DNA from: an uncultured Verrucomicrobiae bacterium
Lineage (GTDB): Bacteria; Verrucomicrobiota; Verrucomicrobiia; Chthoniobacterales; UBA10450
Assembly (NCBI GenBank): GCA_963800015.1
Contig: CAWCZE010000001.1
Coordinates: 5,111-69,110 of the forward strand
DNA: 64,000 nt
Reading direction: 5' to 3'
The first letter of the stretch is position 1; every line of letters begins with the position of its first letter. Both the position numbers and the translations under genes were made by a program. This document shows positions 7,646 through 64,000 of this stretch, piece after piece. Below the pieces are notes generated by a model. That model had not been told where the DNA came from, made no database searches, and worked only from the letters and a program-made list of their open reading frames with translations.

Positions 7646-7766
7646 GCCTAACGAGACCACGATGAGCGACGGCCACCGAAAGCGAGGATGGCTCAAATGA
7701 AAGTGATTTAATCATCTGAAATGTGAACACGCACGGCTGGCCGTTGGCTCCATCGCATGGTTAGGC
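7646..7766 (-). repeat. attC recombination site 6 (about 121 bp, best match to the canonical cores)
   Basis: Minus-strand reading: GCCTAAC-CATGCGATGGAGCCAACGGCCAGCCG...GGTGGCCGTCGCTCATCGTGGTCTC-GTTAGGC. It begins 1 nt after the stop at 7768. Confidence 0.8.
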
Positions 7767-7767
7767 G

Positions 7768-8160
7768 TCAGTGGGGCCATCCCGCGATAATAGCAACTAG
7801 ACCCAAGCCCGTAAACACGATCATCCCGCCGAGCCACGCCCAGGGTTGCGGCGCTGAAAACGGAAAACTGCGAGAGGGAGAACTGTTGTCGTAATACACG
7901 GGAATAGCGCCGCCGATCTGGCGAGAAGGAACTCCAGGAACGCCCCACATGCGACCGATGCCAGTGCCGGCATATTCGACGCCGGCGACGGAATACCTGT
8001 AAGCCACGCGTATCGAATCCGCGCTCGACTCACCAGCGGGAACGCCGGGGCCAGTGTCGGTGATGACTCCGGGCGTCCGCACGAAGAGGAATGGATTGCT
8101 CGGACGTAGCCGAACGATCAGACGCTGATTGCCAATACGATGCACGACGGCCCGAACCAT
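7768..8160 (-). CDS. DUF3592-like membrane protein
   Basis: 130-aa ORF with a beta-rich core (...RVAYRYSVAGVEYAGTG...IPVYYDNSSP...) and a C-terminal TM helix WAWLGGMIVFTGLGLVAIIAGW. The N-terminal TM may be lost to a frame change upstream. Confidence 0.55.
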   Translation of the reverse strand: MVRAVVHRIGNQRLIVRLRPSNPFLFVRTPGVITDTGPGVPAGESSADSIRVAYRYSVAGVEYAGTGIGRMWGVPGVPSRQIGGAIPVYYDNSSPSRSFPFSAPQPWAWLGGMIVFTGLGLVAIIAGWPH

Positions 8161-8484
8161 AAACTGTCACGCTTCCGCAGCGACATGCGTTTAGCTTAAC
8201 ATCACAACAGCGAGGAAGGACATCCAAATGGCAGACGCTTACATTGAACCAAAGCCCACCGTCCGACATGAGCATGACGCCATTGATCACTATGTGATCG
8301 AGCACGCAAACGGCGCAAAAATAGCGGGCCATAAAAACCACAAGGAGAGGCGATCCAAGCTGCAAGGCAAGCGGGCACCATCCGCTTGTCGCTCGCGTCC
8401 GTGGCACTGATAAGGGAAACGCTGATCATTTGCGGTCGTCGGAACGACAATCCGAGCCGAGGGATTGCTGAACATAAAAGGCGA

Positions 8485-9453
8485 TTAGGCGCCGAAGACT
8501 TCGAGAAAGGCGACTTCGAAGGCGAGCGCTTCCTGAATATTGCGGCCAAGATTGTCGCGCAGTTCCTCCAGCCGCTGAATTCGCCGCAATACAGCCGGAA
8601 CACCAAAACGTTCGGCAAGTGTCGCGGTTTCTTTTTTCGCCATCGGCAGATTGTGTTCTGGACTCCGGTGCAGCGCGAAGAACGTCCGACCAAAATTCGA
8701 CAAGAACTTCAATCAGCATCGCGCGGCGTTGGATGTAGAGACTTTCCGTCAGCGCCTTGTAATATTCCCTCCGGTCTTCCAGCCATGCGCCGTCGGTCGC
8801 ATTGCGATATCGTGCTTCTTCATTTTCCAAAGCCTGATCGTTTTCGGCTTTGATCTTTTGCTTAATACGATTCAGCAAGCTCTGCATTCCCTGTTGCAAT
8901 CGATAAGCCTGCTGAAGTCCCCAACTCTTGTCGCGGGCAGCGCCGCGAAGGAGCTCGACCAGCTCGCTTCGTTCCGGAATTTCAATCTCTTCTCCATTCG
9001 GCGTCAGGGGAATGCAAATACAACGCGACACGATTGTGTCCGGCAACGCTTCAGGTAAAGAGCTCAACAACAGCAGCAGCGAATTGCTTGGCGGCTCCTC
9101 CAGGGTTTTGAGAAACGCGTTTGCGGCCTGGGGTTGCAAACGATCGGCTTCGGCAATGATTGCCACCTTGCGCTGTCCTTCCTGCGAGCGCATTTGCAAT
9201 CCGTGTTCGAGCTCGCGGATTTGCTCGATCAATATTCGGCGCGACTTCGATTCGGGCTCGGCGACGAAAATTTCGCGGGCCTTGGAGGAAAATACGTCGC
9301 GGCTTCGGTTCCGTTCACAACACTGGCAAGATTCGCCGCGACTTCGCGTTTGCCGCTTCCAACCGGACCGGAAATCAAATAGGCGTGGCCGAGCCGATTA
9401 TTTTCGTGGGCACGCCGCAGGAGTCCGATCGCAGTTTTTTTCGAGAAAGCCAT
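8485..9453 (-). CDS. holB: DNA polymerase III subunit delta' (frame-disrupted at about 9290 and about 8700)
   Basis: The sequence reads MAFSKKTAIGLLRRAHENNRLGHAYLISGPVGSGKREVAANLA..., then ...ILIEQIRELEHGLQMRSQEGQRKVAIIAEADRLQPQAANAFLKTLEEPP...SRC. The C-terminus comes from ORF 8485..8712. Confidence 0.8.
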
Positions 9454-9517
9454 TTCAGATGTTTGATGTTCGAGGTTCGATGTTCGAATGTCGCGCGAGC
9501 TTCGGGAAATCCCCTGA

Positions 9518-10148
<631 letters not shown>

Positions 10149-10317
10149 TCACTGTTTTCAAGCACCAAATCCCGATGTCACGACTCGTCCATGGGCACTG
10201 GAAATTTCCTTTAGTTGGGCGCCGGACGTTGAGCTCCGAGGGGAAAACAGGATCAGTGCGCACACTCCGCTATGCGACGCCCGATCTTACTCGAAAAACT
10301 TGGTTGCGCAGTGGGTT

Positions 10318-11022
10318 ATGTTTCCTGCAATAATCTGTCATGAAAGCTCTCTGCTACCTAGTAGTTTGCTGCTCATTGCGTTGGCCGGTGTATGGGCTGC
10401 ATCGATCCCATTTTCGTTTGAGTGCTCGAAGGAAGGCGGATTTTTGCCGGACCCGAACAAGCACAAGCAGCTTGGATACATTACCGACTTCGATGCCGGT
10501 GGCGCGACACTAAAAAGAGACCTTCAAGTGAGTCTGCCGCTTAAGCCAGCCTATCGGCAGTTTAACGCTTTCCAGGCGGTTAATGGTCGAACCGTCACGA
10601 GTGTGATTGGTATTGTCGAAAAATTTTCGTGGCCTGGAGGCGTCGGCGATCCAATCGCCATTGAGTTCTATGTGTCGAAAGAGAACGCGATGTTGATCAA
10701 AGCAGTCACGAGCTCCGCTCTTACAACTACCAGAGTCGATTCGATTGCGTGGTGGATTTGCAATTACGATCAGGAGACCAAGGCCTGGTATGAAGCGGCT
10801 TACCCTTCTCACCCCACAGATCTTAAAGGCATAATCCAGGGGGGCTCGGCTAACCCAATGCTAAACGTCGACATGACACCCGTGTCACTCGAAGGTCTCA
10901 ACGGCGTTGCGAATGTTTACAAAGTTACCCTCGGGGTCCTCCCGCCCCCTCATGAGGCTTTCACGCTATTGTTCGCCAACTCATCCGCAAAATCGATGAC
11001 GAAAAATTGGGGACTGCCGTGA
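10318..11022 (+). CDS. hypothetical secreted protein, no recognisable domain
   Basis: Part of ORF 10105..11022, with an internal start at MFPAIICHESSLLPSSLLLIALAGVWAAS (signal-like). An out-of-frame MKALCYLVVCC at about 10341 hints at a frame problem at the 5' end. Confidence 0.4.
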   Translation: MFPAIICHESSLLPSSLLLIALAGVWAASIPFSFECSKEGGFLPDPNKHKQLGYITDFDAGGATLKRDLQVSLPLKPAYRQFNAFQAVNGRTVTSVIGIVEKFSWPGGVGDPIAIEFYVSKENAMLIKAVTSSALTTTRVDSIAWWICNYDQETKAWYEAAYPSHPTDLKGIIQGGSANPMLNVDMTPVSLEGLNGVANVYKVTLGVLPPPHEAFTLLFANSSAKSMTKNWGLP

Positions 11023-11080
11023 TTCTCAGCGCGATAGGACATTAAATAAGCTTTCGTTTGCCCACGCCCAAGCTTCCGAT

Positions 11081-11497: not shown

Positions 11498-11540
11498 TTG
11501 ACCTTGTTCGCAGGGAGAACGGGGTCGAAAATTCGCCGAA

Positions 11541-17798: not shown

Positions 17799-19860
17799 AT
17801 GCAAGAAGATCAGCCGACAACGTGTCCGCACATTGCATTGGGACCCGCGAACGTTCTCGCGCGAAATTCTGTTGGAACGCGAATGGCTCGTGACGAACGG
17901 CCTCGGCGGTTATGCTTCCGGCACAGTTTCCGGCGCGATCACCCGCCGTTACCATGGCGTGTTAATCGCCGCGTTGCCGGCGCCGTTCGGTCGCGTCGTG
18001 ATGTGGAGTCATGTCTCGGAGTTTCTCCGTTTCGACAACGACGAAGTCGTTTCGCTTAGGCGGCGAAGAACGATGCCGGCGGACAACTCGATCTTCGAAG
18101 GGCGCGGATTATCTTCGCGAGTTTCGACTGGAGGACGGAATGCCGGTTTGGATTTATCACGTTCGCGATCTCGTATTCGAAAAGCGCGTCACGATGCCGC
18201 ACCTCCAGAACACGGTGCATGTCAGCTATCGAATCGTGGCTGGTTCCAGCCGCCGCGGTTGGAATTGCGGCCGGCATTTCATTTTCGTCATCACGAAACT
18301 CCGGTGAACGAAGGGCAGGCCGGGCCATACAAGATTACTTCGATAGACGACCGTTACGAGATCGCAGCCCGAACATGGCGAATTGCCGCCGGTGCGAATG
18401 AAAATCTGCCAGTGCCAGTCTGATTTCCACGTCGCGCCTAAGCATCTCACTCAAGTTTTGTATCGGATCGAGCAAAGCCGGGGTTATACCTTCGAAGGCG
18501 ACTTGTGGAGTCCTGGATTTTTCCAGGTCGATCTTGCCAAAGAAAACTCCGTCGACCCTGATCGGATCGACCGAAGAATGGAACATCATCGAAGTTCTGA
18601 GCCCGGACCAGGCACACGCGGCGGAGCGTGAACGTCGCGCGCGTTTGCTCCAGGATGCGCTCCCGAAAGCGCGTCACGATTTCCCGGCGGAACTAATTTT
18701 TGCGGCGGACCAGTTTGTGATTACGCCGGCCGGCCGCTTTGAAGAAGCTGCCCGCGCTCACGCGGCTGGCGACGAGGTGCGAACAATCATCGCCGGTTAC
18801 CATTGGTTCACTGACTGGGGTCGCGATACGATGATCAGCCTGGAAGGTCTCACCCTGCTGACGGGACGCTGGCTCGAGGCCGGTTACATTTTGCGCACGT
18901 TCGCCTATTACGTTCGCGATGGCTTGATCCCAAACATGTTTCCGGACGGAGCCAAGGAAGGCAAATATAACACCGCCGATGCGACACTTTGGTTTTTTCA
19001 CGCAATCGGCCGCTACGTCCAACGCACCAAGGACTTCAACACGTTGAAGTTTCTTCTGCCGACGCTGGTCGAATATTGTTGATCACCATTTGCGCGGCAC
19101 AAAATTCAATATCCATGTCGATCCCACAGATGGACTGCTCGCGCAGGGCGAAACTGGTTATCAGCTCACCTGGATGGACGCGAAGATGGGCGATTGGGTT
19201 GTTACTCCGCGGCGCGGAAAAGCCGTCGAAATCAATGCACTGTGGTACAACGCGCTGCGTTTGATCGCCGAATGGTCGCGCGAATGTGGCGACTCGACAT
19301 TGGCGAATCGCTACGACGATCGTGCCGAACAGGCCTTTGCATCCTTCAACGAAAAGTTTTGGTTCGCTGACGGTCGCTATCTTTACGACGTCGTTGACGT
19401 GGACGGCGGGACTGATCGCGATCCGGCCTGCCGGCCAAATCAACTCTTCGCCGTCTCTCTGGATTATCCGGTGCTGAATCCAGAGCGTTGGGCCGCCGTC
19501 GTCGAGGTCGCAGAAAAAAAATTAGTGACGCCAGTTGGGCTGCGTTCACTGTCACCCGACGATCCAAATTACAAACCGATTTATGCCGGCGACCTGCGTT
19601 CGCGTGACGGCGCGTATCATCAGGGAACGGTCTGGGCGTGGCTGATCGGCCCATTTGTGGACGCGTGGCTGAAAGTTCACCCGCACGATCGGTCGTCCGC
19701 CCGCAAATTTCTCGAATGCTTCCCCGAACATCTGAGCGACAACGGCGTGGGCACGATCAGCGAAGTATTCGATGCCCGGGAGCCGCATCATGCCGGCGGT
19801 TGCATCGCTCAGGCGTGGAGCATTGCCGAAGTATTGCGGGCCTGGGTCGAGACGGCCTAA
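17799..19860 (+). CDS. glycogen debranching enzyme, archaeal-type amylo-alpha-1,6-glucosidase (GDE_N + GDE_C; several frame changes)
   Basis: EREWLVTNGLGGYASGTVSGAITRRYHGVLIAAL..., IIAGYHWFTDWGRDTMISLEGL, LTWMDAKMGDWVVTPRRGKAVEINALWYNAL, YHQGTVWAWLIGPF. Pieces are in ORFs 17302, 18011, 18534 and 19090. Confidence 0.8.
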
Positions 19861-19922
19861 CGATTTGCCTTATCGACGACGCATCCGCTCGCAGGCGAAG
19901 CGGCTACAATTAAGAGCTGCGT

Positions 19923-21025: not shown

Positions 21026-21631
21026 CTATAATTGGTCCGTCCCGACATCGCCTGCTGCAAGGTCAGATCGTCGGCTGATTCCAAGGCCGCTCCCGCCGGC
21101 AGACCCCGGGCGATCCGCGTCAACGCGATGCCTTTGTTCTTCAAGAGATCGACCAGATAATTCGTGGTCGCTTCGCCCTCCACATCGGCCGCCAGCGCGA
21201 AAATGATCTCGCTGAACTTTTCTGTTTCCGATGCGGTCCAACAATTCTTTGATTCGCAAATCTTCCGGACCGATGTGATCCAGCGGCGAAATCCGGCCGC
21301 CTAACGAATGGTACCGTCCGCGGAAGGCGCCGGTTTTTTCCAACGGCAGGATATCGGTCGGCTGCTCGACCACGCAAAGAAGTTCCATCGCGCGCGACGG
21401 ATCCGAGCAAATGTCGCAAAGTTCGTTGGTCGTGAAATAGCCGCAGAGTTTGCAGGGATGAATTCCACGGCGCGTCTCCGAGATGGCCCGCGCGATCTGC
21501 TCCGGTTGATCGCCGCGCGCCTGGACGATCCAGAGCGCAATCCGTTCGGCCGAGCGTGGGCCAACGCCGGGCATGTGACGAAGTTGCGCGACCAAGTCCC
21601 GAAGCGCGGATGGATATTCCGTTTTCTTCAT
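21026..21631 (-). CDS. recR: recombination protein RecR (C-terminal Toprim part in another frame)
   Basis: LRDLVAQLRHMPGVGPRSAERIALWIV...CKLCGYFTTNELCDICSD. The Toprim part is DVEGEATTNYLVDLLKNKGIALTRIARGLPAGAALE, in ORF 20737..21183. Confidence 0.8.
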   Translation of the reverse strand: MKKTEYPSALRDLVAQLRHMPGVGPRSAERIALWIVQARGDQPEQIARAISETRRGIHPCKLCGYFTTNELCDICSDPSRAMELLCVVEQPTDILPLEKTGAFRGRYHSLGGRISPLDHIGPEDLRIKELLDRIGNRKVQRDHFRAGGRCGGRSDHELSGRSLEEQRHRVDADRPGSAGGSGLGISRRSDLAAGDVGTDQL

Positions 21632-21672
21632 GAGCGTTTACTCGAGCGCGGCTCCACGGATCCCCGCCGCTT

Positions 21673-22932
21673 CTACATCGGCCGCATCGGCACTTCGGCA
21701 AGATGAAGCGCGAGCGGCTCGAGCCGGCGCAGATACAATTGCAGCGGCGCGTCTTCTTCCTCGTTAGGCCCGCGCGCTTTTTGAAATTCCGAATACGCTT
21801 CGGCCCAGCGTTTCTCGCGATAAAACACAACGCCGTTCCAAAAACAATCGCGCCGGGCGAGTTGTTCCGGTTTTGCTTCCGCGGCCGGCCAGAGAGGTTC
21901 GTAAATCTCGTGACGCTCGCGCGATATTTACGCCGCTGAGAAAATCAATCGGCCGCGCGACAATGTATCGGCTGGCCAAGCTCGAACGTGCGAGGCCCAA
22001 TCAAAACACGAGATCCATAGAATCGGTTCGCCACACAAAATCGCCGAGCAAGCTCGACCGGTTCGCCGCTCGTGATCAGACCCGGACGATCGCCATTTTG
22101 AAGCGGCGCGACCACCATCGTTCCCGAGCTGACTCCGACATGAACATCGGATTTCGCGTCTCCGTTTGCCACGACGCGCATCGTCGAAATTGATCGACCA
22201 CATCGAGCGCAACCCGCACCGCTTTGTCTCCATGATGCGCGTCGACTTCCGGAAAACCAAACAGCGCGACTACGCCCTCGCGCATCAGCGGTTTGAATGT
22301 AACCGCCCGCACTCATGAAAATGATCCGTCGCGCGACGGATAAAATCTTCGGTGATATTTGCCGAACTCCGGCGGCTCGCATTCGTCCGCCAGATCGTAT
22401 TTGTTCGCGACATCGCAAACTACCACGGTCGTTTCGTAAGTCTTCGCGTCGGGATCGAATGGAATGTCGCCAGACGATAACGCGTTGAAACTGATCACTT
22501 GATAGTCGATCGCTGAAAAACGCGCGCGCCGTGACCGAGCGCCCGCGATGAGCGATCGCGGTGTAACGATCGGCCGCGACGAACCCGAGAACGGTGCGCA
22601 AACATCGACGGCAAAGGTTGGAAAAAAAATTTGATATAACCCACAGATCCACGCGACGGCTGCGAGCTCGACAGCAACCCGATCACCAAGCAGCCCGATC
22701 CGACCGCGTCGCGAACTCGTCGCCGTCAGCGCCGCCACGCCAAACGCGAGGACCGACATGAACACGTATTGGAGTTGCGTCGGCGAGATTGCGAGTGGTC
22801 GATCCGGAGTCTGCAATGTAATCGGCGGCCCGCGATTCGAATTCCCTGACCTGAGGGACAAGCTGCAGGCGCTCACCAGCCACCACGGTGAAAATACCAA
22901 TAATCAAAGTCGCTATCAGCGGAGCGTTTCAT
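21673..22932 (-). CDS. membrane-anchored class III adenylate/guanylate cyclase (multiple frame changes)
   Basis: N-terminal TM segments are in ORFs 22683 and 22313. The cyclase core is TVVVCDVANKYDLAD..., ...ALFGFPEVDAHHGDKAVRVALD..., ...VHVGVSSGTMVV.... The C-terminal helical part ends LHLAEVPMRPM with a stop near 21673. Confidence 0.6.
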
Positions 22933-26705: not shown

Positions 26706-27314
26706 ATGACTACCGCCAATAAAATCACCATCACGCGGATCCTGATGATCCCGGCGTTTGTGACCATGGCGATCTATTATGGTGAAAGCATTCAGCGTCA
26801 CGAGCCGCAGGAGTGGATGCGCTTCGCCGCAATTATCATCTTCCTTGTGGCGGCGGTGAGCGACGGGCTGGACGGTTACGTAGCACGCCGTTACAAACAA
26901 CGCAGCTCGTTAGGCGTGATTCTTGATCCGATCGCAGACAAAGGTTTGCTTTTGAGCGGCATCATCACGCTGAGCATCAGCAATTGGAGCGAAAGCGACC
27001 CGGATTACGGAAAATTTCCGATCTGGTTTCCGGTCCTCGTCATTACGCGCGACGCGGTGATTCTGGTCGGCGCGATAATGCTGCATTATTTGATCGGCAA
27101 CAAAATGAAAGTGAAGCCGAGCTGGACGGGAAAAGTCGCGACGGTTTGCCAGATGTGCGCGATTGCGTGGGTCATGTTGCAGCTTCGTTTTCTGCCGCTA
27201 ACTGCCGTCGTCATAGTTGCCGGACTGTTCACGCTCGTCTCCGGGATTATTTACGTCCTGGCAGGGGTCCGCCAATTGCAAGCCGAGGGTCACGCCCACG
27301 CACGCGCCGATTAA
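26706..27314 (+). CDS. pgsA: CDP-alcohol phosphatidyltransferase (PgsA-like)
   Basis: DGLDGYVARRYKQRSSLGVILDPIADK matches the CDP-alcohol phosphatidyltransferase motif. The protein has multiple TM helices. Confidence 0.8.
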   Translation: MTTANKITITRILMIPAFVTMAIYYGESIQRHEPQEWMRFAAIIIFLVAAVSDGLDGYVARRYKQRSSLGVILDPIADKGLLLSGIITLSISNWSESDPDYGKFPIWFPVLVITRDAVILVGAIMLHYLIGNKMKVKPSWTGKVATVCQMCAIAWVMLQLRFLPLTAVVIVAGLFTLVSGIIYVLAGVRQLQAEGHAHARAD

Positions 27315-30815: not shown

Positions 30816-31318
30816 ATGAGCTTCCTCGCCGCCCAGAATTTTCACGAGATCGCGCCGCCGGTGGATTACTCTTTCGTTCCCACGTGGCTGATTTTTGTGG
30901 GAAGTTTCGTCGTAATTTCACTCATCGGTTTGGTCGTTTGGTTGTTTATGCGAAAACCGAACCTGCGTTGCCCCCGAGATTGCCGCGCGACATCGCCCTG
31001 GAAGAACTCGACTCGATCAGCGGTGAAATCGAGACGATGAACCCGTATCAGTTCAGCATTCGCGTCTCAGATATTTTGCGACGTTATGTCACGAATCAAT
31101 ACGCGCTACCGGTTACCCGCCAGACCTCGGTCGAATTTCTCACCGCTCTGGCCAAAGCGTCCTCGTTCTCGCCTAACGAGAAGTCGCTGCTCGAAGATTT
31201 TTTGAATCGATGCGATTTGATCAAGTTCGCGCGATACGAAGCAACATCCGCGGACAGCCGGCTTCTCCTGGAAGAGGCGCTGCGGTTTGTGAAAGGAGAA
31301 CAACTTGCGCTTGCTTGA
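30816..31318 (+). CDS. DUF4381 protein (one frame change near 30950)
   Basis: MSFLAAQNFHEIAPPVDYSFVPTWLIFVGSFVV... joins ...ALEELDSISGEIETMNPYQFSIRVSDILRRYV...LIKFARYE. Confidence 0.7.
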
Positions 31319-34609: not shown

Positions 34610-34659
34610 CCCGGAAATTTGAGGGTTGATGGTTGAGAGTTGATAGAACGCCGATGCAC

Positions 34660-37387: not shown

Positions 37388-38802
37388 ATGAAAGCGGAGA
37401 TGGATATCGAGACGAACCGAAAAGCGTTCCAGATCAATCTCGACGCGCACAAAGTACGGGACTTTTGCCGAAATCGGCGCCGGCCAGGAAGTAGCGCGCC
37501 GGTTTTTCCTTGTTGGCGGCGCGGCGGGGACGGTCGCTAAAACGATGTCCGCCTACGACATGACGTTCAGCGATGCGATTTACGGTCCTGCCGATCGTTA
37601 TGTCAGCCGGGTGCGCCTGAACACGATGCTCGATCACGAATACGATTTGCTTGTGGAACGGCTCGACAAAAAATCGGGAAGCGAGCGCGACATTTTTTGT
37701 TTTCGCAGACACCGTTGCCGCGCGCAGCTTCAAACAGCATAACGAATCCCACGGCTGGCTCGGCGTTCGATTCCAAACTCAGCCGCGCGGCGAACCGAGC
37801 CAGATCATTATTCACGTTCGAATGCTCGATGAGGGAAATGCCGATCAACAGGAGGCGCTCGGCGTCATTGGAGTGAACCTGCTTCATGGCGCGTTTTATC
37901 AAACCCAACCCGAGCGATTGATATCGAGCCTCCATGAAAATCTCGCGCCCGGCCGGATTCAAGTCGACCTGATCAAATTCTCCGGTCCGGCATTTGCCGC
38001 GATTGATAATCGGTTGATGAATCTGCAATTGGTTAGTCAGGGCCTCACCGATGCAGTCATGTTCAAGGCCGACGGCGAAATGGTGCAGGCGTCGGAAATC
38101 CTGCACAAGAAGGCGATTCTGATCGAGCGCGGCAGCTTTCGGCCGGTGACCTACGCAACCAACGACATGCTGGAAGGCGCTCGGCGCCAGTTTCTGAAGG
38201 AGACCGGTGGCTCCGAAGAAGATCTGGTCGTGCTCATGGAAATGACGCTGGAGAATTTGCTTGCCGAAGGTCAATTGAACCACGCGGATTTTTTGCAGCG
38301 AGTCGACATTCTGGGCGCGCTCGGCCGCACGGTTTTAATTTCAAAATTCGGCGAATACTACCGTCTGGCCGCTTACCTATCCCGTTACACGACGAAAAAG
38401 ATCGGGCTGGTAATGGGCGTGCCGACTTTGCACGAAATTTTCGACGAGAAATATTATCTCAATCTCGAAGGCGGAATTTTGGAAGCGCTCGGTCGAATGT
38501 TTAAACACGGCCTGAAACTTTACGTTTATCCGATGATCGACGAAAAGAGCGGCAAAATCGTGACTGCAAATCAAACCCAGGTCGCGCCAAACCTGCGATC
38601 GCTGTTTCAATACCTCATCGATAATCGTTACATCGCGGAAATTGCCGATTACGAACGGGATTTCCTGCGTATTTACCCGGCTGCAGTATTGGCAAAATTG
38701 AAAGCCGGCGACGAGACTTGGGAGGAAATGGTGCCGCCCGAGGTCGCGCAAATCATCAAAGAACGCGAATTTTTCGGCTATCACGCAGCGGTTGCGGCCT
38801 GA
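37388..38802 (+). CDS. conserved protein of unknown function (about 470 aa; two frame changes in the first 300 nt)
   Basis: MKAEMDIETNRKAFQINLDAHK(YGTFAEIGAGQEVARRFFLVGGAAGTVAKTMSAYDMTFSDAIYG...) continues into ORF 37651..38802. I cannot assign a family. Confidence 0.5.
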
Positions 38803-38905
38803 CCGCGAAAAATCGCCGAAACGGCACCAGGCTGGGTGCGTAAGTTACTTAGTAGAAACCGTCTCCACGAGGCACGTTTCCCGCTACAGGGAGTACAGCA
38901 GCATC

Positions 38906-39973
38906 ATGGCCCGACGCGCAGATTCTGTTATTGGCATCGACTTAGGCAAACACACGCTCAAAGGCGTTGCTCTTCGCCGAAAGAGCGATAATCGCTTTGT
39001 TCTCACGAGCTTCGCTTCCCGGCCTGTGCCCGAAGAATTTGCATCGCCTGACGATCTTGCCCGCGAACTAAAACAGTTGGTGAAAGAGCTCGGCGGCGCC
39101 AAAACCTGTGCCTTTGCGATTTCGGATCCCGGCACAATCCTTCGAATCATTGAGCAACCGGACACGCCTGTCCATTTGTTGCGAAACGCTCTCCGCTTGA
39201 ATGGTCTGGCGGTCTTGAACCAGGAATGCAAGGACTTCGTCCTCGACGTTGCTCCGGTCACACCGCGCAATGGAAATTTGCCTGATGACAAGTCAGGCGG
39301 CGGAAACGTTGCCGTGCACGCCGGCGTCCTTACTCAAACCAAATATCTGGTCGGCGGAACCTTGCGGAGCCATGTGAAACAAATCGTCGCCGCCGCCGCG
39401 AAGATCCGCGTTTCGCCTGAACTGATCCAAGTCGCTCCGGTTTGCTCGTTCAACGCGTTTGAATTCGCCTACCCCGATGTTTTCGCCAACGAACCATTTC
39501 TGCTGCTCGACATGGGTCATCTCCAAAGCACGGTGTTGATCGGAAGCCGAAGCGAACTCGTTCTGGTGCGCAGCATCGATTACGGCGGCAAAGCTTTGAT
39601 GCAGGCGCTGACCGCCGAAGATGCTCTGGATGGCGATGCTGCGTGGTTGATGATTCAACAAGGCGACGAAGGCATGACTGAAATTTGCCGAAATTCGCTC
39701 GCGCGGTTGGCCATGGAAGTGCGCAATTCCATCGGGTTTTTTGAAGGCCAGCACGAAGAAAGCATCCACCGAATTTTTGTTTCCGGCGGATTGGCTCGCG
39801 CCGAAACTGTTTTGCAAACTCTCAGCGACGAACTGAGTTTGCCCTGCGAAATTTGGGATCCGCTCGAGACCTGCGAAGTCACGCTGCCCGCGGCCAAGCG
39901 TCAGAGTTTGCCGAACGAATTTGTGTCACTCAACGTCGCCTGTGGAGCGGCCTTCGAATATCTGAAGAAATAA
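38906..39973 (+). CDS. pilM: type IV pilus assembly protein PilM (actin-like ATPase fold)
   Basis: Part of ORF 38792..39973, with the start at MARRADSVIGIDLGKHTLKGVAL. The sequence also has ...IFVSGGLAR.... Confidence 0.7.
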   Translation: MARRADSVIGIDLGKHTLKGVALRRKSDNRFVLTSFASRPVPEEFASPDDLARELKQLVKELGGAKTCAFAISDPGTILRIIEQPDTPVHLLRNALRLNGLAVLNQECKDFVLDVAPVTPRNGNLPDDKSGGGNVAVHAGVLTQTKYLVGGTLRSHVKQIVAAAAKIRVSPELIQVAPVCSFNAFEFAYPDVFANEPFLLLDMGHLQSTVLIGSRSELVLVRSIDYGGKALMQALTAEDALDGDAAWLMIQQGDEGMTEICRNSLARLAMEVRNSIGFFEGQHEESIHRIFVSGGLARAETVLQTLSDELSLPCEIWDPLETCEVTLPAAKRQSLPNEFVSLNVACGAAFEYLKK

Positions 39974-40642: not shown

Positions 40643-41215
40643 GTGATGAAAATTCCTAAACTTTCTTCCGACCAGATTAAAAAATTGGTCCTCAGCGCGA
40701 TGGGATTCGTTGTCCTGCTGTACGTCTATTTCACTTTTTTTCTCGGGCCTCTCCAAAAGTCTCGGGACACCACGTTTACCCAGATTGACGAAATCCAGAA
40801 GAAAATCGACGGCTCAAAAGGCGAAATGTCGAAAGCGGCCAATCTTGAGCGTCAAGCGAAGGATGCGACAGCGCGCTTTGCCGCGCTCAAAGGGCTGATT
40901 CCAGACGGAGCGCCGATCGCGTGGTTCCCGCCGCGGATGAAGACATTTTTTGCTAGCGACCAAATCGACAAGGCCTCTGCCCGGCTCGAAAGCAGTACCA
41001 GTTTCAAACAAACCGAATTGTCCAGATGGAGTAAATACAACTGGATAATCGAGTTGCCCCAAGCCGATTTCGTCGCGCTCGGCAAATCCATTGCCGATCT
41101 CGAAAATGCCGAACCACTGCTTTGCATCACCAAGCTGAACATTCATGTGCTGCCTACTGAATCGCAGTTCCAACAGGTCGGCATCGCTGCCACTACCGTA
41201 ATCGAAAAACGATGA
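40643..41215 (+). CDS. pilO: PilO-like pilus assembly protein
   Basis: An N-terminal TM helix (LVLSAMGFVVLLYVYFTFFLGPL) is followed by a coiled coil and a ferredoxin-like C-terminal part. Gene order also supports the call. Confidence 0.5.
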   Translation: MMKIPKLSSDQIKKLVLSAMGFVVLLYVYFTFFLGPLQKSRDTTFTQIDEIQKKIDGSKGEMSKAANLERQAKDATARFAALKGLIPDGAPIAWFPPRMKTFFASDQIDKASARLESSTSFKQTELSRWSKYNWIIELPQADFVALGKSIADLENAEPLLCITKLNIHVLPTESQFQQVGIAATTVIEKR

Positions 41216-43971: not shown

Positions 43972-46624
43972 CTAGAGTTTCTCCCTCGCCTGCTTCAACA
44001 ACCTCAGCTGGTCCAGATAATTCGTCTGGCGCTGGCGATTCAGTTCTACCACGTCCCTCGGCGCGCGATCGACAAACGATTTGTTGTTCAGCTTCGATTC
44101 TACAATGCGCAGATCGGCTTCAATTTTTGCGATTTCCTTATCCAGCCGCGCGCTCTCCGCGGAGGCGTCGACATCTACGATAAGCAAGAATTTCACCAAG
44201 AGCAGTTGTGGCAATCGGCACACCCGCGTCGGCGCTAAAACCCGGATCCACCTTCAATTCGGACGCGTTGAGCAAACGCGCGACTGTTCCCTGCTCGTCG
44301 GTCAATTCGAATTCCTTCGACCGCAAAGCGAACTTTGCTTTCTGATTCGAAGGAATGTGCGCCTGCGCGCGCAAATTGCGGCCTGCCTGAACGGTTTCGT
44401 AAATCGCAGCGACCAGTTTCCGTTTCTCCAGATCCGCATCTTTCAGAGGGAACTTCTTCGGCAAAGGTGCGAACTGAATCGATCCCGTTCCCAAACCGAG
44501 CAGGGACCAAAGCTCCTCGGTGATGTGCGGCATGAACGGATGCAACAAACGCACGATTGCGGACAGGACGTAATCCATCACCGCGAGTGCGGATTTCTTC
44601 CTTGATTCGTCTTCGCCAAAAATCTCGGTCTTCGCCGCTTCAACGAACCAGTCGCAGTAATCGCTCCAGATAAAATCGTAGAGCCGCTGCGCGATGTTAT
44701 TGAATTCGTAATCGCGATAGCCTTTCTCGACCGCGTCGATGGTCTCGTTCAGCCGCGCCAAAAGTTCGATCGCGTAGATCGATAAGTCTTCTCGAGTTTC
44801 GGTTCAGCCATCACTCGGGCCGTGCATTTGGCGAAAACGCGCGACGTTCCAAAGCTTGGTCGCGAAGTTGCGGCCTTCTTCGATTTGCTTGTCGTCGAAT
44901 CGAATGTCCTGGCCGCTCGGCGCGATTCGCATCAGACCGAATCGCAAACCGTCCGCGCCGTATTTATCAATTAAATCCAGCGGATCGGGTGAATTGCCTA
45001 ACGACTTCGACATTTTCCGGCCCTGCTTGTCGCGAATGATGCTGGTGAAGAAAACGTCGTGAAACGGAATATTGTCCTCGGTCTTTGTGGTTTGGCCGGG
45101 CTTGAACTCGAGCCCGGCAAAAATCATTCGGGCGACCCAGAAGAAAATAATGTCCGGCCCGGTAACGAGGGTGGTCGTCGGATAAAATTTCTTTCGCGTT
45201 TTTGGATCCATCGTTTCATAGGCCCACAGCCACGACGAAAACCAGGTGTCGAGCGTGTCGTTATCCTGGATCCAATTCTCCGGATCCTTCGGCGGTTTCA
45301 AACCGACATAAATTTCGGATTTCGGATTTCGGATTTCGGATTTTTCCGTTCCGGTACCACGCCGGAATCCGGTGTCCCCACCAAACCTGGCGGCTGATGC
45401 ACCAGTCCTGAATATTCTTGATCCACTGCTCGTAAACTTTCTCCCAATGGTTGGGATAGAAACGGATGAGATGTTTCTTCACCACCGCGAGCGCTTCTTT
45501 GGTCTTCGGATATTTCAAAAACCATTGTTCGCTTAGCCGCGGCTCGATCGGCACATCGCTGCGATCGCTGAAGCCGACATTGTTTTCGTGCGGCTCGGTT
45601 TTTGCCAGCAGTCCCCTCGCCTCCAATAATTCCGCCGCTCGTTTGCGCGCCTCAAAGCGATCGAGGCCGTGCAATTCCGGAACGGCCGGGCAATCGATTT
45701 TTCCGTCCGCGGTTAGAACATCGATCATCGGCAATTTGTGCCGCTGACCAATCTCGAAATCGACTTTGTCGTGCGCCGGCGTGACTTTCAGAATGCCGGT
45801 GCCGAATTCGGGATCGATCGCATCGTCCGCAACAACCGGAATTTTTTCGCGCGGCAATCGGACGCCAAACCTCTTTGCCGACAAGTTCGGCGTACCGCTT
45901 GTCGTTCGGATGAACTGCAACGCCGGTGTCGGCCATGATCGTTTCCGGCCGCGTCGTCGCGACTTCCAAAAATTTCCCGGGCTGATCGACAATTTCGTAG
46001 CGAACGTAATACAGATTGCCGCGTTGCGGTTTGTTGATGACTTCCTCGTCCGACAACGCCGTTTGGGCCGCCGGATCCCAGTTAATCATCCGGCGTCCGC
46101 GATAGATCAGGCCTTTTTTGTAGAGATCGACAAAGACTTCGAGCACTGCGCGCACGTACGATCTCATCCATCGTGTATCGCTGGCGCGACCAATCGCACG
46201 AGCAGCCGAGCCGTTTCAGTTGCTGAATGATGATGCCGCCGTGTTTGTCCTGCCATTCGAGCACGCGCTGGAGGAACTTTTCACGGCCGAGATCGTGTCG
46301 CGTCACGCCCTCATTTTTGCGCAGCCATTTTTCGACCGCGGTCTGCGTTCCGATTCCGGCGTGATCCATCCCCGGAAGCCAAAGCACTTCAAAGCCCTGC
46401 ATCCGCGCGCGCCGCGCCAGGATATCCTGAATCGAATCGTTTAACACGTGGCCGAGCGTGAGAACACCGGTGATGTTCGGCGGCGGCATCACAATCGAGA
46501 ACGGCTTCTTTTTCGAATTCGCATCGGCCTCGAAGTCGCGGTTATCGATCCAACGCTGATACCATTTCGGCTCAACGGTTTTTGGATCGTAGGTTTTGGA
46601 AAGCTCGGCCATTTTCGGTTTCAA
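43972..46624 (-). CDS. valS: valine--tRNA ligase (at least 5 frame changes as assembled)
   Basis: The N-terminus is [21 protein letters not shown]...[13 protein letters not shown] (HIGH-like). The sequence also has [22 protein letters not shown] and [12 protein letters not shown] (KMSKS). The C-terminus is a coiled coil. Pieces are in ORFs 46082, 45652, 45261, 44804, 44138 and 43972. Confidence 0.9.
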
Positions 46625-55615: not shown

Positions 55616-57058
55616 ATAAACTCAGCCGCTGGAAACTACGCCATCTTATTTTTTGTTTGCGTGGCTTTTCACGTCATTGGCACGTGGAGCGTTCCGTTGA
55701 TCGATCGCGACGAGCCGCGATTCGCTGAAGCGTCGCGGGAAATGATCGAGCGCGGTGATTACATCGTTCCGCATTTCAATAATCAGCTTCGTTTGGATAA
55801 ACCGCCGCTCACCTATTGGGCCCAGGTCGCCAGCTACAAGATTTTTGGGGAGAATGATTTCGCGGCGCGCTTTCCTTCCGCGGTCGCCGCGGCGCTGGTT
55901 GCGATAACGATTTTGGCATGGGGCCGGCAGATCGGCGGCGATCGGGCGGCCTGGTGGGCGGCGATTATTTTCACGCTCTCGCTGCAGACGTTTGTTCACG
56001 CCAAAGCCGCAGTCGCAGACATGTGGCTGGTTTTGTTTATGACGACAGCGCACTGGGCGGGATGGGAATTGATCGCGAAACGCGAAACGCGAACTGCGAA
56101 ATGGCGAACCACAATGGCGGTTGGTGGATCTTTTACCTTTCTCTTGCGTTGGGTTTTCTGGCCAAAGGCCCGATTGCCTGGACGCCGTTGTTGACTGTTG
56201 CGGTGATGAAATTTTTGGCGCTTGATGTTGAGTTGGCGCGGCGCTTCAAGTTCGTCCGCGGAATTTTGTTGATGCTTGCAATCGTCGCGCTCTGGGGAAT
56301 TCCGGCCTTAATCCAGACCCACGGGGAATTTCTGCGCATCGGCATCGGCCGTCACGTGATCGGCCGCTCGATCGGTGCGATGGAAGGCCACGGCTCAAAT
56401 TCGTTAGGCACTTATCTCCTGTTGCTGCCGTTTTATTTCGTGACCGTCTTCGCCAGTTTTTTTCCGTGGTCGCTCAAACTGCCGGCGCTGACAAAAAAAC
56501 TCTGGCGCGAACGGGACCAGACGGACCTTTATCTGCTGAGCGGCGTCGCAATTATTTTTGTCATCTTCACGCTCATCAAAACCAAGCTGCCGCATTACAC
56601 CCTGCCCGCGTTTCCGTTGCTGGCGTTGCTGGTCGCGCGACACGTTTCCACGGAACGTTTTGTTAAAACTGCCGCAATCGCGGTCGGCTGTCATCTATCT
56701 CGCGGTCGCGCTATTCGCCGCGCCCTTCGTTGCCCGATTCTTTCCGGCAGCGGAACTTTATCGACAAGCGCGAGCCGATCTCAAACCGGAGATGGAATTT
56801 GGCGCGATCGAGTTCCAGGAACCGAGTCTCGTTTGGTATTTTCGATCGCGCGCGAAAGGCTGGATGGTTCCGTTAAAGGGAAAAAACGCGACCGAATTCA
56901 TGCAAAGAAGTGGGCCGCGTTTTGTCATTTTGCCAACTGAGATGGGTGAGGACGCGTTCCCAAATTCACCGGCGACTTGGAAAACGTTCACCACAACCGG
57001 CTTCAACATCGCCAAAGGCAAGAAAGTTGATCTCACTCTGCTCTTAAAACCGGAATAA
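55607..57058 (+). CDS. ArnT/PMT-like glycosyltransferase (GT39/GT83; two frame changes)
   Basis: PLIDRDEPRFAEASREMIERGDYIVPHFNNQLRLDKPPLTYW. Pieces are in ORFs 55607, 55918 and 56558. Confidence 0.7.
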
Positions 57059-57982: not shown

Positions 57983-59372
57983 ATGTTGGTTAAAGACGAC
58001 AAACTGGCCGCAATCCGCGGTTCCTTCCCCAAAGAAGGCCTCTTCGCCGAAAAGGATTGGCTGCTTTCGCCGGACGCGTTTCCGATCGAAAAGAAGTTTC
58101 AGACCGAACTCGAGCAGCTCGGTCATCGCCTGTTGGTTTTTCAGCGCGCCTGCAATCAGCTTTACCAGCTAAGCGTCAAAGGAAAACAGCCCGCCTGGGT
58201 CGCGCGTTATCTCGACGCCGGCAAACCTAAAGAGTTGATCGAATTTTCGCAGCGCAAAGAAATTCGCGACGATCTGCCCCGCGTCATTCGTCCCGACCTG
58301 ATCCTGACCGATGACGGTTATATCATTGCGGAAATCGACTCGGTGCCCGGTGGAATCGGGCTCACCGGCTGGCTCAATCAAACTTACTCAAGCTTCGACA
58401 GCGAAATTATTGGCGGCGCAGACGGCATGCTCGCAGGATTTCAAAGCGTGCTGCCGAATGGCGGCGATATCGTGATTTCACAGGAGGCCGCGACTTACCG
58501 GCCGGAGATGGAATGGGTCGCCGCGCGACTTAATCAGAAGATACTCGATTCTGGATCCTCGATACTCGATCAAGAGAAGACCACGCGTCCAGAATCCAGC
58601 ATCCAGTATCCAGAATCCAGCATCGTGGCGGACAGTTGCGGCCGAAAACTACGAGCCGCGCGACGGCGTTGCGGTTTACCGCTTCTTCGAACTATTCGAT
58701 CTGCCGAACATTCCAAAGATCGAAAATCTTTTGCGCGCGAACGCTGACGGCCGCGTGACAATCACGCCTCCGATCAAACCGTTTCTGGAAGAGAAAATGT
58801 GGTTCGCTCTTTTCTGGTTGAAACCGCTCCAGGAATTCTGGCGACGCGAACTCGGCGAGAAATATTTCCTGCAGCTCCAAAAAGTGATCCCCTATTCGTG
58901 GCTGCTTGATCCCACCCCGTTGCCGCAACACGCGGTCATTCCCCGTCTGGAAATTCACGATTGGCGCGAAGCGGCCAGGTTCAGCCAGAAAGATCGCGAT
59001 CTGCTCTTAAAAATCAGCGGATTTTCGCCACTTGGGTGGGGCAGCCGTGGAATTTCGCTCGGCTCCGATCTCGCCCATGCCGAATGGGAAAAACGGATCG
59101 AAAACGCGCTGACTACTTTCGATTCAGCGCCGACGATCCTGCAACGGTTTCATAAAGGTCGACTGATCGAACATCGCTATTGGGATTCGGATTCGGGCGA
59201 ACTAAAAATAATGAAGGGCAGGGTGCGGCTGTGCCCGTACTACTTTGTCGAATCAAACAAAGTGCAGCTCCGCGGCGCGCTCGCTACGATTGTTCCCGCC
59301 GACAAAAAATTCGTCCACGGCATGCGGGACGCAATTTTGGTTCCGTCCAGAGCTGACCAGGCGAAGGCCTAA
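57983..59372 (+). CDS. circularly permuted ATP-grasp / glutathionylspermidine-synthase-like protein (one frame change near 58630; internal repeat insertion)
   Basis: MLVKDDKLAAIRGSF...RPDLILTDDGYIIAEIDSVPGGIG... joins ...VYRFFELFDLPNIPKIE...PIKPFLEEKMWFALF...RLCPYYF. The family assignment is approximate. Confidence 0.5.
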
Positions 59373-59729
59373 CGAGTTACTCTCGCTCGAGGCCTCTCAG
59401 GTTCTCTCTGGCGGCGGAGTCACCGCGCGACGCCGCCAATTTGAGCCACCAAACAGAAAGCCCTCGATCGTTCCGGGCGGAGTAATAGTAATTGCCATGC
59501 GTCTCGCGGAGACGTTATCGCCAAGAAGGGCGTCCCGCTCGGTCGCTCGAAGCTGGTTCTTTGTTGAAATGGTCTTCGGCGGAACGCCGTAGTGGACCAG
59601 CCCGAAAGACCGACAGCGAGGCAGCCATCAGGAGGAACGAAGACTTCATAGCTAACGAAAACCTTAGAACTAGAACTGCCGGGCGAAAAGAGCAGACTAA
59701 CAACACACGAGACACGGCCAGGAGCTGGC

Positions 59730-60233: not shown

Positions 60234-60252
60234 TTGTTGATATCTCGAAGCC

Positions 60253-61879: not shown

Positions 61880-61921
61880 CTTAGCAGCCAAATTGCGGTT
61901 GAAAATTCCCAGCGCTTCCGG

Positions 61922-62707
61922 TTGCGTATCTGCCCCATGCGCGTTCTGCGCAATTTTAGCTCTTTTTCTGCGATCTGTCGATCCTGGGTCGGTCACAAGT
62001 TGACGTCGGATCGTCGCAAAGCGGCGCAGCTGCCAATGTATCGCCCGATTCTGCTCGGCACTGGGCCGACTGCGTTGATCAATCGCATCGACACGCGCCG
62101 ATTTGGCGCAGGAAAGGACAAAAAGACGCGGCGGTCATGTTCTCCTGCTCGGTGCAAGAAGGACGGGCGCGGTCATTTCGAGTTTCCACCTATCGCGGCA
62201 CGCCAGATTCAAAATTGCTCGAGCAGGAAGTGATCAAGAGACTGTCGGTGGCGGCGAATCCGAAGTTTTTCCCGGCGGTTTACAACCATTTGCCGGTTGA
62301 CGCGATCTATCTACGGCACGGTCACGTTCAGGGTGGTGGACGGGAAACCGCGGCTGCGGATTTTTTCCAACCAGGAACGGAGGAATTGAAAAAGGAAAGC
62401 GACTTCGTCGGTCCGCAGCCTTTTTGGGGAGGCGAATCGAAATTTAACGGCTTCGCATTACCCGAGCAAGAATGACTGCGCCAGTCCAAGTGGACGGCGT
62501 CGGCCGAATTGGAGGCAGAAGATCGACGCGACAGGGGATCTGTTAAGAAAATCAGCATCGTTAGCGAGGAGCCGCCTTTCCTCGGTTTCGGCGACACCGC
62601 CTTCGAGGACTTGGGCAAGGCGAAATTCATTCCGGCGTTTCGCGACGGCAAACCTGTCGCCTGCGACGTGAAGATGCCGGTTTATTTCAACACCATGAGG
62701 GCTTCTA
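61922..62707 (+). CDS. TonB C-terminal-domain protein (fragmented)
   Basis: ORF 62509..62790 contains ...IVSEEPPFLGFGDTAFEDLGKAKFIPAFRDGKPVACDVKMPVYF, which is TonB_C-like. The upstream part is in other frames. Confidence 0.35.
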
Positions 62708-63322
62708 ATGTCGCGGCTCAATCGCCAGCTAAAGCTGTCCGTGATAAACGGCCGAATCATTCCCGGAATTTTTTCGTCGTGATCCGCTGACTTGCGCGCG
62801 CGAGCTCATCGGCGCCGAGCTGATCTGGGGAAGCTGCGCCGGGACGCATCGTGGAGACGGAGGCGTATCTGCGCGGAGAACGACGAAGCCTCTCACACTT
62901 TTTCCGGCCGAGCGCGCGCGCGTTCGTCGAGCGCAACAAGCCGGCGCCGCCTACGTTTATTTCAGCTACGGCGCGCACTGGATGTTGAATGTGCTGGTGA
63001 AAGGCGAGGCGAACGGTTTCGTGTTATTCCGCGCCGTTGCAACCGAAGCACGGCATCGCATTGATGAAAAAGCGCCGCGGTGTCGATGACGAACAGCAAG
63101 CTTTGCTCGGGGCCGGGAAAATTGACGCAGGCGTTGGACATTACCGGTCGGCATCACGAGATGGATTTGTGCGGCGATCCGCGCGCATTGCTTCGTAGCG
63201 AGCGACGAAGGGCCGATGTGGTGGCGGACGCGCGGATTGGGATCACGCGGTCGGCGCATCTTCCGTGGCGATTCACTTTGCGCGGACAGCCCATTCGTGA
63301 GCCGTCGCAGTCGAAATGGTGA
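62708..63322 (+). CDS. mpg: DNA-3-methyladenine glycosylase (Mpg/AAG family; frame-disrupted)
   Basis: ...FFRRDPLTCARELIGAEL...(R)IVETEAYLRGENDEASHTFSGR...AAYVYFSYGAHWMLNVLVKGEANG...LCSGPGKLTQALDI...ARIGITRSAHLPWRF. Confidence 0.6.
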
Positions 63323-63358
63323 TGACCGAGCGCCTCGATTGACTCGGCGCAGCCGGAA

Positions 63359-64000
63359 GTGATCGTGACGATTCGTGCTTCGAATGAGACTGAAAAACAA
63401 CGCGTGCTGCTCGGCATGAGCGGTGGAGTGGACTCCAGCGTCGCCGGCTATTTCCTGCGCGAACAAGGCTACGACGTCATCGGCGTGACCATGAAAGTCT
63501 GGCCGCAGGACTGTATTTCGCGCGCGGAAGACAAATGCTGCGGACCACAGGCGGTGGCGGACGCGCGGGCCGTCGCCCATTCGTTAGGCATTCCACATTA
63601 CGTGGTCGATGAAGCGGACCAATTCGAACAGACCGTCATCAATTATTTCGCGAGCGAATACCAGGCCGGACGGACGCCGAACCCGTGCGTGATGTGCAAT
63701 GAGAAGCTCAAGTTCGGCAATCTCTGGGGAAAGCGGAAGCGCTGGGGTGCGATTACATCGCGACCGGCCATTACGCGATCATCGAGCATCGAGGCAGACC
63801 GACGCCGTTTTGCGCAAGGGCGTCGATCCGCGCAAAGATCAGTCGTATTTCCTATTCAGTCTGCGCCAGCCGCAATTGCGGCGCGCCCTGACCCCGCTCG
63901 GGCGCGATGCAAAAGCCGGAGATCCGCGAGATCGCGCACTCGTTAGGCCTGAAGGTGGCCGACAAAGTCGATAGCCAGGAAATCTGTTTCGTCCCGGGCA
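63359..64000 (+). CDS. mnmA: tRNA 2-thiouridine(34) synthase MnmA, 5' part (frame change near 63720; continues past the window end)
   Basis: [33 protein letters not shown] (PP-loop), [16 protein letters not shown], then ...DYIATGHYA... in another frame. Confidence 0.85.

Follow-up and report, generated by a model that had tools for sequence, protein, structure and literature searches.

An asymmetric nine-base word enriched across a family of uncultured soil Verrucomicrobia, and its possible role as a DNA-uptake signal

Introduction

The DNA considered here is a stretch of 64,000 nucleotides from an uncultured Verrucomicrobiae bacterium (GenBank assembly GCA_963800015.1, contig CAWCZE010000001.1, positions 5,111 to 69,110 of the forward strand), which in the following is called the window. 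It contains 12 exact copies of the nine-base word GCCTAACGA, and we find that enrichment of this word is a family-wide trait of the uncultured soil Verrucomicrobia near Candidatus Udaeobacter to which the source organism belongs. The word is asymmetric (non-palindromic) and has a TAA on one strand and a TAG on the other. The evidence points to a family-specific process that acts on the DNA sequence, writing this precise asymmetric 9-mer on both strands regardless of coding. To our knowledge, the only known class with such a footprint is that of the uptake sequences, the 'self-DNA' tags of Neisseria and Haemophilus. By this analogy, GCCTAACGA may be a DNA-uptake-type self-recognition word that is spread by drive on the DNA, a reading that we adopt tentatively and hold at slightly less than even confidence.

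As far as we know, uptake sequences have been described for only two proteobacterial families, both of animal-associated bacteria, and the recent preprints on such words concern the Neisseriaceae and the Pasteurellaceae. The literature that we searched contained no paper on the word (in either strand), on uptake sequences in Verrucomicrobia, or on transformation in Udaeobacter. Most of what is known about the relatives of Candidatus Udaeobacter, a group of soil bacteria, comes from metagenome-assembled genomes (MAGs), and kin-biased exchange by transformation may shape soil populations of this kind that are not yet culturable. The word would also be of use as an easily made probe in the search for the receptor, and as a taxonomic marker for binning and for tracing the family's DNA in metagenomes.

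Over-representation and anatomy of the word

The source genome, called G000, was placed by a search with its Der GTPase as a soil MAG of the order Chthoniobacterales that adjoins Candidatus Udaeobacter. Its assembly consists of 11 contigs and 2.87 Mb with 55% G+C and is 74% complete; the window corresponds to C1:5111-69110. All 12 exact copies that the initial annotation had counted by hand in the window (7 on the plus and 5 on the minus strand) were recovered at the same positions and on the same strands. Dinucleotide-preserving shuffles of the window yield a mean of 0.27 copies and a maximum of 2. If up to one mismatch is allowed, the window has 32 sites compared to 12 expected, 20 of them with one mismatch. 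Five such 8/9 matches had been listed before, and these are real, but their positions had been given 1–3 nt away from the actual ones (6261, 27430, 27803, 28266 and 31721).

In the whole of G000 there are 261 copies (141 forward, 120 reverse), while Markov models of order 0–4 expect 11–23, that is, the observed/expected ratio is also 11–23. With the exception of one poly-A run, GCCTAACGA is the top over-represented 9-mer of the genome. A run of 1,238 consecutive A residues is found within a contig at C10:368433-369670, and this is most likely an assembly or masking artefact.

To account for coding constraints, synonymous codons were permuted within 2,688 crude gene calls, keeping the proteins and the per-gene codon usage. 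In 100 such shuffles, the genes of G000 contain on average 10.6 copies and at most 17, compared to the 179 copies observed. The observed/expected ratio is thus far from 1 also under a codon-aware null model, and the over-representation proposed in the initial annotation stands.

The word can be read in four stop-free frames, and all of these are used in G000, giving S-L-G (95 copies), x-P-N-[DE] (56), L-T (43) and V-R (37). Some 30 further copies are non-coding or located at gene ends, and both gene orientations occur. The suggestion that genes always read the word as S-L-G, as P-N-E/D or across a stop is therefore correct inside the window, but it does not extend to the genome, where L-T and V-R are used as well. 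TTA is indeed a rare codon here, as had been noted, with 5.3% of the Leu codons, and yet TCG-TTA-GGC spells 79 of the 359 S-L-G tripeptides (22%), compared to the 0.8% predicted by codon usage, which is a 27-fold excess. A peptide motif or a codon bias as the cause is rejected by the codon shuffle and by the use of four frames. The earlier inference that selection or drive targets the DNA word rather than the protein is strongly supported by the use of all stop-free frames in both orientations, by the 27-fold excess of a spelling with a rare codon and, in a relative of G000 described below, by a higher density in non-coding than in coding DNA.

When the 261 copies are aligned, their flanks are found to carry no information except for a weak purine preference at position +9 and a T at +10, with at most 0.1 bit beyond these two positions. 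This means that GCCTAACGA is a bare word and not part of a repeat element. Repeats of the repetitive extragenic palindrome (REP) or miniature inverted-repeat transposable element (MITE) type were rejected, because no conserved sequence or hairpin extends past the core in the flanks of G000 or of its dense relative G073. The exact word dominates its 27 one-mismatch variants in G000, and the clearly enriched variants are confined to its outer positions, above all the change from G to A at position 8. In both G000 and G073, the enriched variants lie mainly at positions 1 and 8, and in G073 also at position 5.

The numbers of copies on the two strands (141 versus 120) show no polarity. Replichore polarity was not found either: orientations are mixed locally, and runs tests give |z|<2 for all large contigs of both G000 and G073. 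The spacing in G000 is near Poisson (mean 1.71 and variance 2.35 in 20-kb bins), with one obvious cluster, on contig C6, and only two tight inverted pairs in the whole genome. No promoter enrichment or other positional pattern was found.

One contig of G000, C7 (52,318 bp, G+C 52.7%), has 0 copies compared to ca 4.8 expected, with P of ca 0.01 before correction. It encodes a T2SSE ATPase, two N_methyl pilin-like proteins, a 971-aa protein of unknown family, a PA14 protein, cytochrome oxidase genes and a broken phage-type integrase, and is chromosomal-looking overall.

Distribution across the family

We now consider how the word is distributed among the relatives of G000. The survey covered 18 species of its genus and 150 genomes from 30 genera of its family, with the reversed word as control. 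The tallies take in four genomes that are flagged as unpublished (G005, G036, G144 and G161), and no statement rests on these alone. In the genus, 17 of the 18 species are enriched, with 107–308 copies compared to 50–79 for the control, the lone species without enrichment being G013. Most of the genomes and genera of the family show the enrichment, while 12 other families of the Chthoniobacterales have 1–19 copies, which is below the control.

Within the family, the density varies ca 100-fold among genera, and ca 15-fold (0.04–0.71 per kb) within the genus g17 alone. Five or six genera hold 1,200–4,336 copies per genome, while g19, g33 and g42 are at or near background; G000, with 0.09 per kb, is a low-density member. 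The possibility of one-base 'dialects' in low-density genera was also considered, but 200-kb samples of G081, G064 and G050 gave weak or no alternatives. A weak shifted form, CTAACGAGA, is present in g19.

The densest genome is G073, which is 91% complete and has 4,336 copies (2,160 forward and 2,176 reverse) in 3.2 Mb, i.e. 1.36 per kb. A sample of 548 kb from this genome, with 759 copies (376 forward and 383 reverse), was used for the analyses of pair geometry. On one contig, there are 236 copies compared to 0.9 expected from an order-2 model, a ca 260-fold excess. Also here, all four stop-free frames are in use, and the flanks are poor in information, apart from weak preferences for T-T-Y ahead of the word and for R-T behind it (at most 0.33 bit at positions −3 to −1). 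Called genes contain 1.17 copies per kb, the DNA outside of them 2.71 per kb, and an excess outside genes is what one would expect from a drive that is opposed by coding constraint. Word-free islands might represent foreign DNA, but the largest gaps in G073 carry ordinary genes and no rRNA.

To follow individual sites, six of those in the window were aligned with orthologous DNA of 10–11 congeneric species at 72–80% identity, which is a small sample of non-independent genomes. The exact word is kept in 33% of the comparisons, whereas the remaining 9-mers of these alignments are kept in 11%. Some sites are old, such as that at 21299, where the word is exact in 7 of 9 species, and others are lineage-specific. 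At 26907, the congeners show GCGCTCGGC and similar sequences, which indicates turnover, and at 31171 an apparent stepwise gain can be followed among them, from GGCCAACGA via GGCTAACGA to GCCTAACGA. There are also 12 aligned places where a relative has the word and G000 does not. The alignments suggest that gain and loss are probably continuing, rather than that the word is in pure decay.

The strand and density data bear on the possibility that the word is a Chi-like hotspot that modulates a helicase-nuclease of the RecBCD/AddAB type. Chi (GCTGGTGG and analogues) is likewise a short, asymmetric and over-represented word, and the enrichment of 11–23 in G000 is of the order known for Chi. However, Chi is co-oriented with replication and needs RecBCD/AddAB, while the local orientation of GCCTAACGA is random, which already largely refutes this option. 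A search for RecC found none in G000, G073 and G059 but did find it in G063, which is not enriched (AddAB/AdnAB were not searched for), and 1.4 copies per kb of a 9-mer, with an observed/expected ratio of ca 260, is far past the known Chi sites. On the grounds of local orientation, runs tests and patchy RecC, replichore-polar signals in general, such as Chi and the FtsK-orienting polar sequences (KOPS), were rejected, and a Chi-like role is in our view scarcely credible.

A possible uptake signal

The initial annotation had offered three explanations for the word, namely secondary target sites of an integrase, an uptake or recognition signal, and a protein-binding word. Judged by analogy of pattern, the uptake or recognition signal appears to fit best. 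The DNA uptake sequence (DUS) of the Neisseriaceae (GCCGTCTGAA and its dialects, with the minor pilin ComP as receptor) is also a non-palindromic word of 9–12 bp. Its copies number from hundreds to thousands per genome, at densities that can exceed 1 per kb, and are equally divided between the strands. Like GCCTAACGA, it uses every permissible frame within genes while being denser between them, and it belongs to a single family, in which other lineages have alternatives of their own. Type IV pilus genes, ComEC and DprA are present in both cases, but for GCCTAACGA they are not discriminating (see below). The uptake signal sequence (USS) of the Pasteurellaceae has a 9-bp core, AAGTGCGGT or ACAAGCGGT, with ComN as the predicted receptor (bioRxiv 10.1101/2025.06.16.659825). 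It shares with GCCTAACGA the core length, the weak flanking preferences and the existence of two family-level variants, most copies lie in coding DNA roughly according to its share, and codon and peptide usage are distorted.

From this pattern we infer a receptor, biased uptake and drive, and the following scenario can be envisaged. A receptor of the transformation machinery, located at the surface or in the periplasm and probably a type IV pilus component, would bind double-stranded DNA that carries the word. Uptake would thereby be biased toward DNA from kin, and homologous recombination would then spread the alleles that carry the word, in a molecular drive opposed by coding constraint. In G000 this drive would be weak, or the word may be partly a relic.

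It is important to point out that several observations weigh against this reading. In G073, inverted pairs within 30 bp are at the chance level (12 compared to ca 11 expected from a Poisson distribution), while direct pairs within 30 bp are 5-fold enriched (52 compared to ca 11), and in both respects the word is unlike DUS and USS. About half of the copies of the latter two are located in terminators, often as inverted pairs (bioRxiv 10.1101/2025.10.24.684340). A frequent pairing of inverted repeats of this terminator type was not found for GCCTAACGA in the 548 kb of G073 or in G000. Since this association is missing, the word is described here as working like an uptake sequence and not as a member of the DUS/USS class. 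Furthermore, the density in G000 is ca ten times below that of working DUS/USS systems, the word shares a 7-nt core with integron attC and attI sites, which hints at another protein or another origin, and we know of no member of the family that is transformable.

There are also other differences to the known systems. The hosts of DUS are not Verrucomicrobiota, whereas those of GCCTAACGA are uncultured soil bacteria of this phylum. In place of an excess of inverted pairs or of terminator hairpins, the word shows phased direct doublets and tandem arrays, and the alternative word of the family, AAGATCGACA (see below), is unrelated in sequence and not a one-base dialect. In contrast to USS, GCCTAACGA lacks AT-rich, helically phased flanks, and with a stop codon on each strand (TAA and TAG) it often supplies the stop of a gene.

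Concerning the machinery, G000 carries ComEC, DprA, three or four secretins, PilM, a T2SSE ATPase and pilin-like N_methyl proteins. In the window, a PilM-type type IV pilus assembly gene is found at 38792-39973 on the plus strand (PF11104 PilM_2, E 8e-20), a candidate for such machinery only, and the open reading frame (ORF) 40643-41215 beside it has a weak T2SSM/PilO-like match. ComEC is present in 143 of 151 genomes. As both ComEC and DprA occur also in non-enriched genera, they do not discriminate, which is a further point against the uptake reading. Another one is that a search for an HHH_3 domain of the ComEA type gave no hit in G000 (74% complete), nor in 14 of the 15 genomes of the genus. 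HHH_3 occurs in all high-density genera, but also in non-enriched ones. The only HHH_3 protein of G073 is a 310-aa fusion to a staphylococcal nuclease, with the HHH_3 at the C-terminus (L159:5161-6093, minus strand, contig C15), and most genomes of the family have matching ORFs of ca 300 aa. For these reasons, and because it is confounded with phylogeny, the 'ComEA-like' HHH_3 was given no weight as a marker. ComEC appears to be split or to have an in-frame TGA in two low-density genomes (G151:C12:409293-409950 and G035:C9:459447-460251) and may be a pseudogene there; in other low-density genomes it is intact.

The geometry of the direct pairs leads to a different explanation. Their spacings in G073 peak at 10, 11, 13 and ca 20–24 bp, and tandem arrays of up to five copies occur, mostly at gene boundaries. 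Three such arrays, located at gene boundaries and with 3–5 copies at 10–13 bp spacing, are C15:27159-27215, C14:61761-61790 and C14:94305-94330. The phased doublets suggest some bound protein. The word could thus be the site of an abundant chromosomal DNA-binding protein that has nothing to do with uptake, for example a nucleoid-associated or chromosome-organising factor, or it could be a 'self' mark read by defence or repair, and the many sites would then be kept by selection. Doublets and arrays at about one and two helical turns, which suggest head-to-tail cooperative binding, are consistent with this, as are the sharp definition of the word at all 9 positions and the higher density outside genes. 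A chromosomal 'self' mark would also be expected to be missing from viruses, and none of the 23 IMG/VR contigs found by a direct-doublet scan has dispersed copies. However, the ca 100-fold density range among genera, the ca 15-fold range in g17 and the loss of enrichment in one congener would be odd for an essential architectural site. Promoter enrichment or another positional pattern is lacking, weak selection would hardly maintain sites by the thousand in the absence of a drive, and no candidate protein was identified. We therefore regard this explanation as unlikely, although it still carries considerable weight.

A second word in the family

A second word, AAGATCGACA, which is unrelated to GCCTAACGA, is also over-represented in G000, with 156 copies (for example on C9, C2 and C10), ca 10-fold over expectation. 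Two frames dominate, K-I-D and V-D-L. A dialect check in G059 yielded this same unrelated word, and G053, G035 and G017 are further relatives from which it is cited.

Across the family, the distribution of AAGATCGACA is largely complementary to that of GCCTAACGA. Genus g18 has 2,607 copies, and most species of the genus of G000 have up to 1,474, while the GCCTAACGA-rich genera g35, g15, g17, g28 and g16 are at background (8–63). Genus g36 is rich in both words, with 2,673–4,653 copies of AAGATCGACA. G000 and its nearest relative, G150 (155 copies), are poor in both. In terms of the uptake reading, AAGATCGACA would appear to fill the same role in other genera. The 100-fold density range, the two words, and the genera with both or neither of them provide contrasts for studying the rise and decay of such words.

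The existence of two words is also relevant for the alternative that biased repair or gene conversion turns near-matches into a word without function. A mechanism of this kind, sequence-specific mismatch correction, has been proposed for the cyanobacterial palindrome HIP1 (GCGATCGC), which resembles GCCTAACGA in being short and hyper-abundant, at about one copy per kb, in being lineage-restricted and present both in and between genes, and in possibly being generated by drive. The drive-like signature with codon preference overridden, the faster accumulation where constraint is low, and the near-matches that appear to convert stepwise into the word are all compatible with it, and a lineage-specific presence or absence would follow from gain and loss of a single enzyme. 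On the other hand, HIP1 is palindromic and linked to a site of methylation, whereas GCCTAACGA is asymmetric and has no known modification. A 9-bp asymmetric target is without known precedent, as short-patch repair acts on short and usually palindromic methylation sites. No candidate enzyme was found, although no search aimed at one was made. In addition, two unrelated words need two systems, both of which would have to be active in g36. Biased repair is thus an improbable origin of the word.

Relation to integrons

The word consists of TC followed by the integron R' core GTTAGGC, exactly as in the first description of it as an attC R' core plus 2 nt, and the 7-nt core is common to the attC and attI sites of the lineage. 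In the window, a cassette array extends over 964-8199, and all six of its attC sites begin with nnCTAACGA(G/A)AA on the plus strand. G000 has a second array at C6:44700-51700, which consists of small ORFs on one strand, every one with an attC site after it that starts with GCCTAACGA(G/A/C)AA.

Integron integrases above the curated cut-off are present in 92 of 151 genomes and 26 of 30 genera of the family, while in G000 (74% complete) and G073 (91% complete) no TIGR02249 match exceeded it. Arrays adjacent to intI were examined in four genomes, the word-rich G052 (L211, G052:C2:1396000-1415999), G053 (L209), which is rich in both words, the word-free family member G050 (L210) and G022 (L208) from an outgroup family. 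Their attC sites are very uniform and read RY-CTAACGA-GAACAAGAT[CG]AGC, and the attI-like site beside intI reads CTAACGA-GAAGTAG. Several of the intI genes carry an in-frame stop, e.g. one TGA in G052.

On this basis, one may ask whether the integron integrase, as had been suggested, or a related tyrosine recombinase uses the dispersed copies as secondary targets or binding sites, which would then derive from the integrons of the family or function with them. The shared core, the attC and attI-like sites of four genomes that begin with RY-CTAACGA-GAA (integron sites in general have the R' core GTTRRRY, and all those of the lineage contain CTAACGA), the wide occurrence of integrases and the two cassette arrays of G000 are in line with such a role, and the copy at 7646 and the cluster on C6 are true attC sites. 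However, more than 90% of the copies are solitary, without R'', L'' or L' partners, and are found in both orientations inside conserved genes. The attC architecture (an imperfect palindrome R''-L''...L'-R' immediately after a cassette ORF, in same-strand arrays) is absent from the dispersed copies and is seen only at 7646 and at C6:44.7-51.7 kb. The inner flank is also different, with T rather than A at +10, and GC is fixed in the dispersed word where attC accepts any RY. Given the missing partner, the different flanks, the required GC, the negative integrase searches in G073 and G000, and the restriction of the word to cassette arrays in G050 and G022, the dispersed copies are not attC sites.

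The same findings speak against the suggestion of secondary integrase targets. G073, the densest genome, and G000 are those in which no integrase was found, and integron-bearing genomes outside the enriched lineages (G050 and G022) have no dispersed copies. The copies stand in frame inside housekeeping genes, inverted pairs at recombinase-like spacing are not enriched, and a chromosome with thousands of sites active in recombination would be scrambled. In G052, only 2 of 17 attC sites plus the attI-like site have the GC before CTAACGA that completes the 9-mer, and the idea that attC sites adapt toward the full word is accordingly not supported. Taken together, we consider a role as integrase target to be very unlikely.

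A link of another kind can also be considered. By a rough estimate, a word would have a 7-mer in common with the conserved ends of attC in 1% of cases by chance, so that a historical or mechanistic connection to attC may exist. One may then speculate that GCCTAACGA and AAGATCGACA are two unrelated self-recognition words in a sequence-selective transformation, the first of them seeded from the integron core CTAACGA. We think that this combination is rather doubtful, but if it were true, integron cassette pools would be linked to the origin of uptake specificity, with words that alternate or co-exist among genera. If, on the other hand, the word has no part in uptake, it would be the mark of a novel system of DNA recognition that acts genome-wide, and the overlap with the integron sites would need an explanation of its own.

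Copies and hairpins in the window

Finally, the 12 copies of the window are described individually. Five of them are read as S-L-G and two as P-N-E, three provide the stop codon of a gene, one belongs to an attC site and one lies in no called gene. Their host genes are unrelated, and include those of a glycogen debranching enzyme, a CDP-alcohol phosphatidyltransferase, BatD and a class-I tRNA synthetase.

The copy at 7646-7654 (plus strand) forms the R' end of the integron attC site 7646-7766 and is the sole attC-borne one. Stop codons are provided at three places. At 19855-19863 (plus), GCC-TAA is the last sense codon and stop of the glycogen-debranching (GDE_C) gene 19090-19860, the word being exact in 3 of 7 congeners; at 59367-59375 (plus), GCC-TAA gives the stop of ORF 58731-59372; and at 63940-63948 (minus), ORF 63359-63946 ends with the TAG inside the word. 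The same ORF contains the copy at 63581-63589 (minus), which is read as Ser-Leu-Gly.

The remaining Ser-Leu-Gly copies are at 21299-21307 (plus; read as TCG TTA GGC from the opposite strand in the minus-strand ORF 21026-21631), at 26907-26915 (minus; in the CDP-alcohol phosphatidyltransferase gene 26706-27314, exact in only 2 of 11 congeners), at 44996-45004 (plus; read from the opposite strand in a class-I aminoacyl-tRNA synthetase fragment, 44804-45301 on the minus strand) and at 56401-56409 (minus; in ORF 55918-56940). The reading x-Pro-Asn-Glu is found for the copies at 31171-31179 (plus; in ORF 30884-31318) and 35814-35822 (plus; in the gene for BatD, 34633-36507, with 5 of 11 congeners having the exact word). 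The copy at 21761-21769 (minus), which is exact in 5 of 9 congeners, has no confident gene call and is located in the minus-strand ORF region 21141-21830.

Apart from the word, G000 has 37 scattered intergenic copies of a hairpin that resembles a REP or a terminator, CGGCGGTC-aGA-GACCGCCG with CTACA after it. It corresponds to the 'REP/BIME-like' element noted separately in the initial annotation. Examples of this CGGCGGTC/GACCGCCG hairpin are found at C1:49065 and C1:55152, which correspond to ca 43955 and ca 50042 in the window.

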